Shown here piece by piece: positions 2,932 through 42,157 of a DNA stretch of 64,000 nucleotides; positions within the stretch are counted from its first letter, which is position 1; every line of letters starts with the position of its first letter. The stretch is from Chloroflexota bacterium. Lineage in GTDB: Bacteria > Chloroflexota > UBA11872. A program made the translations under genes and the position numbers. The stretch spans positions 6,827 to 70,826 of the forward strand of contig JAPPLN010000010.1 of assembly GCA_028874175.1 (NCBI GenBank). The letters are read 5' to 3'. The notes below the pieces were generated by a model. That model was not told where the DNA came from and ran no database searches. It saw only the letters and a list, made by a program, of their open reading frames with translations.

Positions 2932-3012
2932 TGCGAGGCGGGCGTCTGCCAGTTCTCGAACAGCGGGCGGCTGGCCTAAGCGGTATTAGGGTATCGGTGA
3001 ATCGGCTGGCGC

Positions 3013-3774
3013 TTAGCTCGAGGTCTTCGTTTCCCGTCCCTCTTCGGCGTCCTCGGTCCAACGAAAGTCACAGCGGTCGTTGTAGTCGCAGTAGCGGCAG
3101 TGTTTGCCCGGAGTCGGTTTGAAGTCGGCGGCGCCAACACGCTCGGCCAGCGCCTGGTAGCGGTTGAGCACGTCGTCGGCGACGGCGGGGTCGGGTGACT
3201 GGGAAATGCCCTGGTTGTCGGTGAGGTAGTAGACGGTGAGTCGCGACACGGCGCTGTTGAAGCCACGCTCGAGCGCGAGCGCGTAGGTGTGGAGCTGGGT
3301 GCGCAGGCGGCCGGGTAGTTCCGTGGGGCGGCTGCCGCTCTTGTAGTCGATGACTTCAAGGCCGTCGGACCGCTGGTCGACGCGGTCGATGACGCCTTCC
3401 ACGGTGTAGGCGTCGTCCGATCGCAGGCGCAGGCGGAAGCGCCGTTCAAGCATGACGGGGCGGCCCGGGGCGTGGCCGCGGGCAGACCAGAAGCCGTCAA
3501 GGAGTTCGTGGCCGCGCTCCCAGATGTCGGGGAAGCGCTCGCGGTTCAGGCGCGGGGCCTCGCGCCAGTAGGCGGCGTGCAGCTCGTGGAGGTCGGCGCG
3601 GGTGAGGCGGACGCCGTCGCACAGGCGCGCGAAGGCGCGGTGCAGGACCGAATGGACGATGGCGCCGACGGTGAGGCGAGGGGAGAACGGGATGGGGATG
3701 CGCTCGACGTAACGGAAGCGGTAGGCGTAGGGGCAGAACTCGTAGAGGGCGAGCTTGGTGAAGCTCAGGCGCAT
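3013..3774 (-). CDS. PD-(D/E)XK nuclease, Cas4/RecB-like with Fe-S cysteines
   Basis: 253-aa ORF. Motifs: EFCPYAY near the N-terminus, IDRVDQRSDGLEVIDYKSG (D...D-x-K block), QLHTYALAL (QxxxY) and C-terminal CRYCDYNDRC. This is the 1+3 Cys pattern of Cas4/AddB-type nucleases. Confidence 0.8.
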   Translation of the reverse strand: MRLSFTKLALYEFCPYAYRFRYVERIPIPFSPRLTVGAIVHSVLHRAFARLCDGVRLTRADLHELHAAYWREAPRLNRERFPDIWERGHELLDGFWSARGHAPGRPVMLERRFRLRLRSDDAYTVEGVIDRVDQRSDGLEVIDYKSGSRPTELPGRLRTQLHTYALALERGFNSAVSRLTVYYLTDNQGISQSPDPAVADDVLNRYQALAERVGAADFKPTPGKHCRYCDYNDRCDFRWTEDAEEGRETKTSS

Positions 3775-3786
3775 GGGGGCGGCATT

Positions 3787-4923
3787 CTACGGAGAGTCCG
3801 CCGAGCTGGACGCGGAGTAGGACGGGCGGCGGCCGGCGGCCGTGTAGGCGCGGCGCAGAACAGCTTCGGCGGGCTTGCCGTTGGGTGGGAATGCGGAGTC
3901 TTTGGCGTCGGTCGAATCGGGGTCCCAGCGCCACCAGAAAACACCCTGCAGGGCCTCGCGACGGTAGGGCAAACCGAAGAAGGCGGTGTAGAGGTTGGCC
4001 TGGAGATCGGAGTCGACTTCGTGCGGCTTGACCGGATCGGCGGCGCGGGGCTGGGAGGCGGCGGTAGCGGCGCTGCGGTAGCCGAGTTCGGTGAAGAGCA
4101 CGGGAATGTCCAGGCCCTTCCTCTTGCGCCATTGCTCGATTTCGTCCAGCCAGACATTCCAGGCGTCAGCGAGCTGAGCGTGGCTGATCTGGCGATCCGC
4201 CAGCGGGAAGTAGGCGTTGATGCCGATGAAGTCCAGATCGTCCCAGAAAGGCACGTCGGCGTAACCGCCCAATTTGGCTGAGGGTGCGTGGCTGGCCGCG
4301 TAGGTCAGGGGTCCGCTGAAGCGCCCCCTGACGTCGGCTATCAGCTTGCGCCAGTCTTCGGCCCGCGCGGCCTCGGAGAACCCCAGGTCGGTACCGAGAC
4401 AGAGCAAGTCGGCGTCTCCTTGAGCGGCCAGGTCGGCATAGCGCTGCGTCATCAGCGTGTAGTCGGCAAACCAAGTCGCGAGGTCTGCGGGCCGGATGTC
4501 GCCGCGCCAGACGCCGTCGTCGGTGTTGACGAATGGTTTGAGCATGACGCGCAGGCCAGCGGCGTGAGCCTGATCGATCAACTGCCGGATGTCACCGTCC
4601 GGGGGTGTTCGCGCGGAGTCCGGGCTGATGTGGGATGCGTCGCTGGTTGCCTGATACCAGCCGGGAGCAATCGACACCCAGTCCGCGCCAGTTGCCGCGG
4701 ATGACTCGACCAGCCGGCCGGCTCGCTGCTGGGCAAAGTCGGTTCCGGAGAGTCCGGCAAGGGTGAGGCCATGCATGAAGGGGGCGTCGGTGGGATCGCG
4801 GCGGCTGACGCCGGCGAAGCCGCAGGCGGCAAGGGCGACGGCAGCCGCGGTGAGCGTCGCACCGGATAGGAGCGTGCGGCGGCCAAGGGACGAAGCTACG
4901 CGCCTGCTCTTCGGCGCCGACAT
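3787..4923 (-). CDS. Putative secreted/lipoprotein glycoside hydrolase (clan GH-A-like TIM barrel)
   Basis: 378-aa ORF with signal peptide plus lipobox-like LAACG. Motifs DQAHAAGLRVMLKP, GINAYFP, VLFTELGY and VFWWRWDPDS resemble GH5/GH113-like beta-glycanases. The exact family was not determined. Confidence 0.6.
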   Translation of the reverse strand: MSAPKSRRVASSLGRRTLLSGATLTAAAVALAACGFAGVSRRDPTDAPFMHGLTLAGLSGTDFAQQRAGRLVESSAATGADWVSIAPGWYQATSDASHISPDSARTPPDGDIRQLIDQAHAAGLRVMLKPFVNTDDGVWRGDIRPADLATWFADYTLMTQRYADLAAQGDADLLCLGTDLGFSEAARAEDWRKLIADVRGRFSGPLTYAASHAPSAKLGGYADVPFWDDLDFIGINAYFPLADRQISHAQLADAWNVWLDEIEQWRKRKGLDIPVLFTELGYRSAATAASQPRAADPVKPHEVDSDLQANLYTAFFGLPYRREALQGVFWWRWDPDSTDAKDSAFPPNGKPAEAVLRRAYTAAGRRPSYSASSSADSP

Positions 4924-4947
4924 TGGGAAAGGCTCAGGCAGCGGAGG

Positions 4948-5292
4948 CTAGCGGCCGAGGATCCAGCGCACGTCCTCGCTCATCATTTCTTCGTTCCACA
5001 TGGGGTTGAAAGTGAGATCGATCTCGGCCTTGCGCACGTGGTCCAGGGACTCGGCTTCCTGTTTGACCTGCTGCAGGATGTACGGCCCGGCCGGGCAGCC
5101 GGGAGTGGTCAGCGTCATGGTGACGGTGGCGCGTTCGTCGCCGTCAGCGGCCGCGGGTTCGCCTTCGCCGGGGACGTACGGGACGACGTCGACCTCATAG
5201 ATCAAGCCCAGGTCGACAATGTTGATGCCGATTTCCGGGTCGATGACGGTACGTAGCTGGTCTCTGACCTGGTCGGGGGTTGTGGTAGCCAC
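4948..5292 (-). CDS. DUF59 / SufT-like Fe-S assembly protein (MIP18 family)
   Basis: 114 aa. Motifs: VRDQLRTVIDPEIGINIVDLGLIY and MTLTTPGCPAGP with the conserved Cys. Confidence 0.85.
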   Translation of the reverse strand: MATTTPDQVRDQLRTVIDPEIGINIVDLGLIYEVDVVPYVPGEGEPAAADGDERATVTMTLTTPGCPAGPYILQQVKQEAESLDHVRKAEIDLTFNPMWNEEMMSEDVRWILGR

Positions 5293-11234: not shown

Positions 11235-11254
11235 ACGAGACTCTCATTGAGGGT

Positions 11255-11272
11255 CGGGGTAAACCCCGTTTT
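11255..11272 (+). terminator. Weak intrinsic terminator after pheT
   Basis: CGGGG-TAAA-CCCCG followed by TTTT, 21 nt after the pheT stop; only 5 bp. Confidence 0.35.
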
Positions 11273-11350
11273 GACTTCGTCCTAGGGCGGCGGATGCCCC
11301 GCAGCTTCACGCCGAGCCGAGTCCGTCAGTCCCTGTTGGGGCGCTAGCGC

Positions 11351-11692
11351 CTACTCCTCGAAGGTGACGCTGGCCGCGTGGAGTTCGTCGGGGCAGGCGC
11401 GGTCGATGGGGACGGGGGTGGGGAGGTTGTTTTGCTGGATGTAGCCCTTGTCGGCCAGCCAGGCTTCGACTTCCTCGCCACTGACGTCGGCCAGCATGCG
11501 GCCGTCGACGACCACGCAGGGTGAGAGCGGCTGCCCGCTCCTGGCGACCATCTCGTAGTAGTTGGCCGCGCTGTTGATGATGTCCTTGTCCTCGTAGTCC
11601 AGGTTGTACTTGTCCATCACGGCGCGGACGCCGGCGCTCCAGCCGCAGACGGGCTTCAGGTAGGCGGTGATGGCGGGCTGTTCGGTTGTCAT
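11351..11692 (-). CDS. Glutaredoxin/NrdH-like thioredoxin-fold protein, monothiol (C-G-W-S)
   Basis: ATG 11692 (MTTEQPAITAYLKPVCGWSAGVRAVMDKYNLDYEDKDI...SPCVVVDGRML) inside the over-long ORF 11351..12235. The upstream part of that ORF is antisense to the next gene. Confidence 0.7.
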   Translation of the reverse strand: MTTEQPAITAYLKPVCGWSAGVRAVMDKYNLDYEDKDIINSAANYYEMVARSGQPLSPCVVVDGRMLADVSGEEVEAWLADKGYIQQNNLPTPVPIDRACPDELHAASVTFEE

Positions 11693-11842
11693 GGGATTCA
11701 CTCTCGCACGGGAGAAACGGGCTGCCCGATTCTGGCAGACGGGGGCGGCGGCAGGAAGAGCTAAGGCTGAGGCAGCCCCCGGGTTGACCACGGATGCGCA
11801 AGCCGCCACGCTGCGGGTGTTGCGCTGGAGAGGATGACCGGC

Positions 11843-12301
11843 ATGAATCGACTGAACGTGGGCGACCGATTTCCCGAGCTGACGGGGCGCTGGGACGACG
11901 GCCGACCAGCCCACATCCCGGACGACCTGGACGCCGGACCGGCGGTGCTGCTGTTCTACCGCGGCCACTGGTGATCGCATTGCCGGCGGCAGTTGGTCGC
12001 CTATAGCTACGTGCTGGATGCCTTTACCGCGCTGGGCGTGCAGGTGGTGGGACTGTCGGTCGATTCGGCCGCGGACGCCGCGGCGACGCGCGAGCGTTTG
12101 CAGGTGGACGTGCCGCTGGTGGGCGATCTGGCCTACCCCGAATCGGTGGACACGCTGGGGGCGTACCGCAACGAGGACCGGCAGTCGCACCAGGCCAGCG
12201 CGTTTGTGCTGGATGCCGACCGCCGCATTGAACACGCCGTGTACAGCGCTACCAACGTCGGGCGGCTGATGCCCGAAGAGGTGCTGCGGATCCTCAGCTA
12301 G
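11843..12301 (+). CDS. AhpC/TSA (redoxin) family protein with in-frame TGA at the redox Cys position: candidate selenoprotein (alternative: nonsense pseudogene)
   Basis: ATG 11843 (GGAGAGG 11827-11833) reads MNRLNVGDRFPELTG...PAVLLFYRGHW-TGA(11972-11974)-SHCRRQLVAYSYVLDAF..., in the same frame as track ORF 11993..12301. Together they form one ~152-codon thioredoxin-fold domain. The TGA replaces the first Cys of the FYRGxWCxxC motif. Confidence 0.55.
11985..12001 (+). promoter_or_regulatory. Candidate bacterial SECIS hairpin
   Basis: GGCGGC-AGUUG-GUCGCC: 6-bp stem (one G.U), 5-nt loop containing GU, starting after a 10-nt spacer downstream of the TGA. Confidence 0.4.
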
Positions 12302-41801: not shown

Positions 41802-42157
41802 TGGTGGAGATGGGGGCGAGTTGAACGCCCCGTCCAGAGCCGGTCACCCCGATGCATCTACAGGTTTAGCCGGACTCTTAGAGTCTCGCCGTGGCGTCGC
41901 TATCCGGCCGCAACGGCGCACGACCAGCCCGCGTGTCTTAGTCGGTCTACGCGAGCGCCTTGACCGACGCACCCTAGATTCCTTGCGCCCGGAACGCCCC
42001 GCTAGGGACGGGCCGGCCGGACGTCGCGGGGCTTAGGCCGCGAGCGGGAGCGTTTGCTCTTCGCCAGTTACTTGATTGCCAGGGGGATTTACGAGCTCCC
42101 CGGCAGGCTCGACCTGCAGCATCGGACTTCGGGGCTCTGTCAAAACCCGTCATCCCC
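41802..42157 (-). ncRNA. ssrA: tmRNA (SsrA)
   Basis: Minus strand 5' GGGGATGACGGGTTTTGACAG ... GGACGGGGCGTTCAACTCGCCCCCATCTCCACCA 3'. Acceptor stem GGGGATG/CATCTCC with G3.U, T-arm and encoded CCA. Tag frame 42080-42036 is GNQVTGEEQTLPLAA, followed by TAA (42035-42033). Lies 12 nt downstream of smpB. Confidence 0.9.

Follow-up and report, generated by a model that had tools for sequence, protein, structure and literature searches.

In light of a TGA triplet that interrupts the coding region of a redoxin of the AhpC/TSA type, we became interested in the question of whether this triplet terminates translation or whether it is decoded as selenocysteine (Sec). The respective locus is part of a 64-kb stretch of DNA from a Chloroflexota bacterium, in the following referred to as the window, where the track of open reading frames (ORFs) lists a single protein of 102 residues initiating at a TTG at position 11993, which corresponds to Leu51 of a longer frame and is contained within the loop of a potential hairpin. 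A preliminary description of the locus had joined this fragment with the sequence preceding the TGA, proposed that the combined frame encodes a selenoprotein with a SECIS-like hairpin following the UGA and named a nonsense pseudogene as competing explanation. Our analysis supports the former proposal by the conservation of the TGA, the covariation of the hairpin and the signs of purifying selection before as well as after this triplet. It is thus very likely that the region between 11843 and 12301 constitutes one gene for a selenoprotein of 152 residues, in which UGA-44 would be decoded as Sec by means of the hairpin. The positions of relevant features are compiled in Table 1, and those initially assigned to the Shine-Dalgarno sequence, the ATG, the frame, the TGA, the hairpin and the ORF starting with TTG were each found to be correct.

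Table 1. Features of the window and of the betaproteobacterial locus L086, with their positions, strands and supporting observations.
Sequence	Feature	Position	Strand	Observation
Window	Glutaredoxin-like gene, 113 aa, C-G-W-S	11351-11692	-	Pfam Glutaredoxin, E=1.4e-9
Window	GGAGAGG, Shine-Dalgarno-like	11827-11833	+	9 nt before ATG 11843; read from sequence
Window	Selenoprotein gene (predicted), 152 codons and stop	11843-12301	+	Translation; Pfam PF00578; 41 intact orthologues
Window	TGA, Sec codon 44 (predicted)	11972-11974	+	TGA column in all close relatives
Window	TGC, Cys47, partner Cys of UxxC	11981-11983	+	Invariant Cys in clade; PDB profile alignment
Window	SECIS-type hairpin, 17 nt	11985-12001	+	5' arm 11985-11990, loop AGUUG 11991-11995, 3' arm 11996-12001
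Window	Second AhpC/TSA gene, Cys-type, Bcp-like (..FSPTCS..), 155 aa	14967-15434	-	2.7 kb downstream; conserved in L001-L003
Window	tmRNA gene	41802-42157	-	Rfam 134.6 bits; predicted tag peptide GEEQTLPLAA
L086 (betaproteobacterial MAG)	TGA orthologue	3001-3444		
L086	tRNA-Sec(UCA)	3758-3852	-	
L086	selB	3918-5054	-	Cut by contig end

The reading frame and its relatives

The frame of 152 codons is closed by a stop at 12299-12301 and contains a single internal TGA, which resides in the context LLFYRGHW-TGA-SHCRRQL and would give rise to a redox centre of the sequence W-U-S-H-C. Its start at ATG 11843, with the sequence M-N/T-R-L-N-V-G-D, is common to the relatives; an alternative ATG at 11834 is not conserved in three of them (L003, L004 and L006). 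When translated with Cys in place of Sec, the product matches the Pfam family AhpC-TSA (PF00578) between residues 6 and 131 (E=1.4e-18, 67.4 bits at a cut-off of 26), and the predicted protein of about 17 kDa would be a Prx-like (AhpC/TSA-fold) thiol:disulfide oxidoreductase. In the window, whose G+C content is 67.6%, the distribution of G+C over codon positions displays a coding signal in the frame of the gene on both sides of the TGA. A scan of the 64 kb for other TGA triplets with coding signal on either side retrieved only the junction between pheS and pheT, which was rejected as second recoding site as it consists of the ordinary stop of pheS abutting pheT. Since TGA serves as normal stop for about 20 of the 58 ORFs of the window, including pheS, there is no global reassignment of the codon.

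A protein search with the redoxin as query yielded 231 candidates and revealed 13 relatives with 60-95% identity, which were without exception called as fragments of 102 residues (13/13), besides N-terminal fragments of 83 residues and two full-length proteins. In the DNA of seven of these loci, the TGA and its context are the same as in the window, and so is the order of genes, which comprises pheS-pheT, a divergent glutaredoxin-like gene, the selenoprotein gene and a convergent gene of the Ldh/Mdh family. On the level of genomes, we have scanned one representative per species for the pattern LLFYRGHW, with the next codon left unconstrained, and selected the best 80 of 279 relatives. Among these 80 sequences, the critical column contains TGA in 66, TGC in seven, TGT in four and TAA in three cases. 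The close relatives are exclusively MAGs of Chloroflexota, many of them obtained from sponges or sea water, and in this Chloroflexota clade, all 41 intact orthologues (at about 60-95% protein identity) consist of 152 codons with a TGA at codon 44. Closed chromosomes containing the gene are represented by OZ242271.1, OZ244802.1, OY764080.1 and OZ240251.1. TGA forms were identified in Chloroflexota, Gemmatimonadota, Acidobacteriota, Nitrospirota, Nitrospinota, Myxococcota and in Alpha-, Beta- and Gammaproteobacteria, and Cys forms in Ktedonobacteria, one Chloroflexia MAG and two Gemmatimonadota. In latter, as illustrated in the alignment with the Cys orthologue P0015, the column is occupied by the first Cys of the motif FYRGHW-C-x-x-C. 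The assignment of the TGA to the position of a redox-active cysteine in the preliminary description is thus borne out by orthologues from Ktedonobacteria and some Gemmatimonadota.

A small number of loci showed a different organization. An apparent 'Trp' form (P0014), which is named peroxiredoxin by its source, was rejected since its DNA (L095:527-1003, JGI contig Ga0669124_0363704) contains a TGA that was translated as W in the gene call of the source. In a Rariloculaceae MAG (L073:3001-3441), the TGA is followed by P-Y-Y, with the second Cys being lost and a further stop found in frame, and a Cys form from Ktedonobacteraceae (L078:3103-3159) is interrupted by a TAG in frame, located two codons behind its CxxC. 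Both are probably decaying copies or the result of sequencing errors. The TAA at the Sec column is confined to three Chloroflexota chromosomes (L043/L044/L045:3130-3132; OZ253578.1, OZ244593.1, CAXXFA010000002.1), where the frame of 152 codons is otherwise intact. These are 99.3-99.8% identical to each other and thus reflect one TAA event. The TAA homologue, at 51% identity, contains a hairpin that is reduced to 4 bp and has no glutaredoxin-like neighbour. The lineage represents either a recent pseudogene or a case of natural UAA-to-Sec recoding, a process that is cited in PMC10778597. A scan of metagenomes for TAA or TAG at the Sec column provided only four chance matches in DNA of low G+C content.

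A covarying hairpin downstream of the TGA

The stem-loop following the TGA (GGCGGC/AGTTG/GTCGCC) consists of six pairs, including one G.U, and is separated from the triplet by a spacer of 10 nt. Bacterial SECIS elements are characterized by a stem-loop that follows the UGA at short distance and contains a G (GU) in its apical loop. A stem-loop with a GU-containing apical loop is present in the TGA forms described here and conserved among them. If viewed in isolation, the hairpin of the window is within chance. Its z-score in single-sequence folding is +0.34 compared to shuffled sequences, with values ranging from +0.34 to -1.86 across fold tests, the local 49 nt adopt another structure at minimum free energy, and about 3.5% of the TGA triplets of the window precede the start of a 6-bp hairpin by 9-12 nt. 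A search of Rfam at gathering and permissive thresholds returned no match to a SECIS-type element, and a scaRNA match in the permissive run was attributed to chance. We have therefore placed no weight on single-sequence folding, and the significance of the hairpin comes from the comparison with relatives.

In an alignment of 54 distinct TGA forms, the six pairs are standard in 95.1% of the cells, 49 of which contain double changes. Compensatory changes are found in four of the six pairs, as illustrated for the pair 27-41, which appears as G-C in 19, as C-G in 18 and as U-A in 14 instances. None of 500 shuffles reached the observed values of pairing and covariation (0/500), and sliding of the 3' arm by 1-3 nt decreased pairing to 10-54%. 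In this covariation, the third positions of the Arg48 and Arg49 codons, which are synonymous, are joined with amino-acid-changing positions of residues 52 (Ala, Val or Gly in TGA forms) and 53 (Ala, Gly or Asp), a relationship that cannot be explained by selection on the protein level and which thus points to an RNA element that is coupled to the TGA. Of the 54 TGA forms, 47 contain the loop sequence AGUUG or AGUUA, with the corresponding codons CAG-TTG being nearly invariant, and Leu51 is in the Chloroflexota clade always encoded by TTG or TTA, compared to CTG or CTC at the other Leu codons of the gene. Conversely, in the same columns of 11 Cys forms, 54.5% of the cells are paired, one pair never forms and compensatory changes are not observed, while the codons for Gln-Leu are freely variable (CAA CTC, CAG CTG, CAA TTG etc.). 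As judged from these sequences, the hairpin is absent in the Cys forms. The combination of the TGA with a conserved hairpin, for which relatives were to be inspected according to the preliminary description, extends in covarying form to relatives that have diverged to about 35% identity and belong to at least eight phyla.

The element shows resemblance to the minimal SECIS of E. coli fdhF. In the genome sequence NC_000913, fdhF carries its UGA at codon 140, followed at a distance of 11 nt by the start of GGUUGCAGGUCUGCACC, in agreement with the 17-nt element and the distance given in the preliminary description. In both cases, a hairpin of 17 nt with a GU in its apical loop is embedded in the coding sequence. 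Differences concern the spacer, which amounts to 10 nt in the window and 11 nt in fdhF, and the stem, which in the window is continuous and G+C-rich with 6 bp and lacks the bulged U of its counterpart. The loop contains five nucleotides (AGUUG) instead of four (GGUC), with its GU located 2 nt nearer to the UGA, and unlike in fdhF, there is no long lower stem. By analogy, the hairpin would work like the fdhF element but differs from a SECIS of the fdhF type. On the same basis, the mRNA would fold into the 17-nt hairpin with its 6-bp stem and AGUUG loop 10 nt after UGA-44. Once the ribosome has reached the UGA, this hairpin would be bound by the complex SelB.GTP.Sec-tRNA(Sec), with Sec being delivered in competition with release factor 2.

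Decoding of the UGA codon and alternative readings

Neither selA, selB and selD nor a gene for tRNA-Sec was detected in the 64-kb window and in the flanks of the Chloroflexota loci in searches that employed tblastn with the E. coli proteins SelA, SelB and SelD, ARAGORN and Rfam. When the same tblastn and ARAGORN search was applied to all loci, the betaproteobacterial MAG L086 was the only positive case. Indirectly, a link to the Sec machinery is supported by this locus, where about 310 nt separate the end of the TGA orthologue from the gene for tRNA-Sec(UCA), which in turn is followed by selB. Further indirect support comes from the phylum of the window, for which a 2026 database paper lists MAGs of Chloroflexota/Dehalococcoidia with 46-49 selenoprotein genes (PMC13326102). 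A 93-nt 'tRNA-Glu(CUC)' assigned by ARAGORN in L040 (4790-4882) reads as coding DNA in a place where syntenic relatives contain a gene for a HpcH/HpaI aldolase, and it is most likely a false positive.

The lack of Sec machinery in the window and in the Chloroflexota flanks would be compatible with a read-through of the UGA that does not involve selenium, where the codon is read as Trp or Cys by near-cognate or suppressor decoding in an organism without a Sec system. In such a process, the hairpin would act as stimulator, as read-through can in general be enhanced by a hairpin that follows the stop codon. We consider this scenario improbable, since the column holds the redox-active Cys in homologues and thus represents a classic Sec/Cys pair, and since the hairpin exhibits the position and the GU-containing loop of a bacterial SECIS. 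It is further opposed by the linkage of the L086 orthologue to selB and tRNA-Sec and by the consideration that a Trp at the nucleophile position of CxxC would kill the redox centre.

A still lower probability is assigned to a split gene, in which two polypeptides of 43 residues and of 102 residues, the latter starting from TTG 11993, would assemble into one thioredoxin fold. This is how automated callers annotate the locus in every public assembly examined. However, the TTG is part of the hairpin loop and not preceded by a Shine-Dalgarno motif, and the Cys forms are all single ORFs. Moreover, the codons 45-50, which are located after the TGA and before the TTG and thus covered by neither of the two called fragments, would not be translated, yet they are conserved as S-H-C-R-R-Q. 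In the clade, these codons show synonymous variation with ratios of 26:13 for CAT/CAC, 23:16 for TGC/TGT at the invariant Cys47 and 24:14 for CGG/CGC. Their conservation in combination with synonymous change is the most incisive evidence for translation through the TGA and excludes a gene coding for two polypeptides and a pseudogene alike. In comparisons of the window gene with relatives at 60-90% identity, the ratio dN/dS ranges from 0.18 to 0.41 in codons 1-43 and from 0.14 to 0.40 in codons 45-152, which in light of the 41 intact genes indicates purifying selection on both halves of the gene. The nonsense pseudogene, in which a single TGC-to-TGA mutation would have inactivated a redoxin of the AhpC/TSA type, could draw on the one-step distance between the two codons, on public gene calls that provide only fragments of 43 and 102 residues and on L043-L045, whose TAA and weakened hairpin may reflect real decay, but its probability is negligible and this competitor of the selenoprotein is effectively refuted by the occurrence of the same TGA in other phyla and in 41 intact orthologues, whose protein identity extends down to about 60%, by dN/dS values well below 1 on both sides with no further stops or frameshifts, and by a covarying hairpin that is found in TGA forms only.

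Active site, genomic neighbourhood and family

When the family profile of the predicted selenoprotein is aligned with solved structures, Cys47 coincides with the peroxidatic Cys and Sec44 with the conserved Thr of the TxxC motif (6q5v, E=1.6e-12), with the catalytic Arg of 6q5v (..TVRAVFIID) aligning with Ala118. Canonical peroxiredoxins (Bcp/PrxQ, AhpC, Prx6) thus share the same fold and a peroxidatic Cys at the position of Cys47. However, the signature Thr/Ser-x-x-Cys plus Arg, which defines these proteins, is absent from the window protein, where the Thr and the catalytic Arg are replaced by Sec44 and Ala118. The protein also differs from the Sec-containing Prx of the TxxU type, where Sec is the last residue of the four-residue motif, whereas it is the first in the window protein. 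With ResA/TlpA-type proteins and thioredoxin (W-C-x-x-C), it shares a thioredoxin fold with a W-[C/U]-x-x-C at the N-terminal end of a helix. In contrast to ResA/TlpA-type proteins, there is no evident signal peptide or membrane anchor, and the sequence similarity to ResA/TlpA and thioredoxin is lower than to peroxiredoxins. Structural properties were inspected in an AlphaFold model of the Cys orthologue P0015 in place of the window protein (pLDDT 85.7, pTM 0.84). In this model, the first Cys of CxxC is located at the start of a helix encompassing residues 44-55, and the closest folds are those of Bcp/Prx proteins (TM about 0.83; Bcp4, 3hjp), with ResA-type oxidoreductases reaching TM values of 0.70-0.75. 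As suggested by the model, the active site would be a thioredoxin-like W-U-x-x-C on a peroxiredoxin scaffold. Since the Thr and the Arg of peroxiredoxins are missing, the sequence makes a function as thiol:disulfide (or thiol-dependent) oxidoreductase more likely than one as classical peroxidase. In the catalytic cycle of such an enzyme, Sec44, which according to the fold of the Cys orthologue would cap the N-terminus of the first long helix, might act as nucleophile with its selenolate attacking the substrate. Cys47 would subsequently resolve the intermediate to a selenenylsulfide, which would then be reduced by a thiol partner. The enzyme may be recycled by the glutaredoxin-like protein encoded next to it or by thioredoxin.

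The gene of this glutaredoxin-like protein occupies the same divergent position in all 41 loci of the Chloroflexota clade that include the respective flank, with identities of 76-98%, and no such gene was detected in the loci of other phyla. Its conservation beside the selenoprotein gene throughout the clade and only there makes the protein a candidate redox partner, with the functional link being suggested by the shared location. In NCBIfam, the protein shows weak sub-threshold similarity to the family 'Uxx-star glutaredoxin-like (seleno)protein'. The spot between pheT and the glutaredoxin-like gene is empty in the window (11235-11350). In relatives, it contains a GmrSD-type nuclease (L002:7116-9224, L007:1-2089), a trypsin-like protease together with a PIN-domain pair (L003:6196-9119) or a DUF4411 protein together with a M78 peptidase (L008:570-2258) and thus looks like a variable defence/toxin-antitoxin islet.

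The existence of Sec-containing Prx-like families, on which the preliminary description had relied, is documented in the literature (PMC1088965, PMC2398784, PMC13188914). A survey of the Sargasso Sea lists 22 selenoprotein sequences as 'Prx-like protein' (PMC1088965), the GOS survey contains 225 sequences of "Prx-like 1" with the assignment pfam00578 and a UxxC motif (PMC2398784), and surveys of bacterial genomes describe Prx-like selenoproteins in Geobacter, Syntrophus and Desulfotalea (PMC1794560). A 2026 review refers to the family, with WP_010940744.1 as representative, as "predicted with high confidence" and not experimentally verified (PMC13188914). This family is abundant in marine bacteria (PMC1088965, PMC2398784, PMC13188914) and shares with the window protein the PF00578 domain, a UxxC in place of TxxC or TxxU, the occurrence of Cys homologues and a stem-loop after the UGA. 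By these features, the gene fits the description of the Prx-like selenoprotein family (PF00578, UxxC), which is known from computational prediction. In the passages of these papers that were searched, we found no mention of a sponge-associated or marine Chloroflexota host or of a glutaredoxin-like neighbour. In NCBIfam, none of the selenoprotein models matches at its cut-off (SelL_rel_redox with 26 bits compared to 120, PrxU with 21 compared to 270), and the peroxiredoxin equivalogs score with 17-43 bits at cut-offs of 140-456. Since no NCBIfam model reaches its cut-off, the FYRGHW-U-x-x-C group may be a separate subfamily. A more far-reaching proposal, by which the group would form a distinct and uncatalogued Prx-like subfamily, whose 17-nt SECIS (AGUUG, encoding Gln-Leu) has remained nearly unchanged in at least eight phyla and whose members in sponge-associated and marine Chloroflexota form a dedicated pair with the divergent C-G-W-S glutaredoxin-like protein, is a tentative one that we regard as doubtful.

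The described relationships amount to the correction of an annotation within a known family and not to a new kind of system. The error is systematic, as the public assemblies examined split the gene into parts of 43 and 102 residues or, in one case, place a Trp at the TGA. With its covariation across phyla, the very short hairpin offers a natural test case for the minimal requirement of bacterial SelB. Finally, with the corrected gene, an uncultured Chloroflexota clade of marine and sponge origin gains a predicted selenoprotein and hence evidence that selenium is used.
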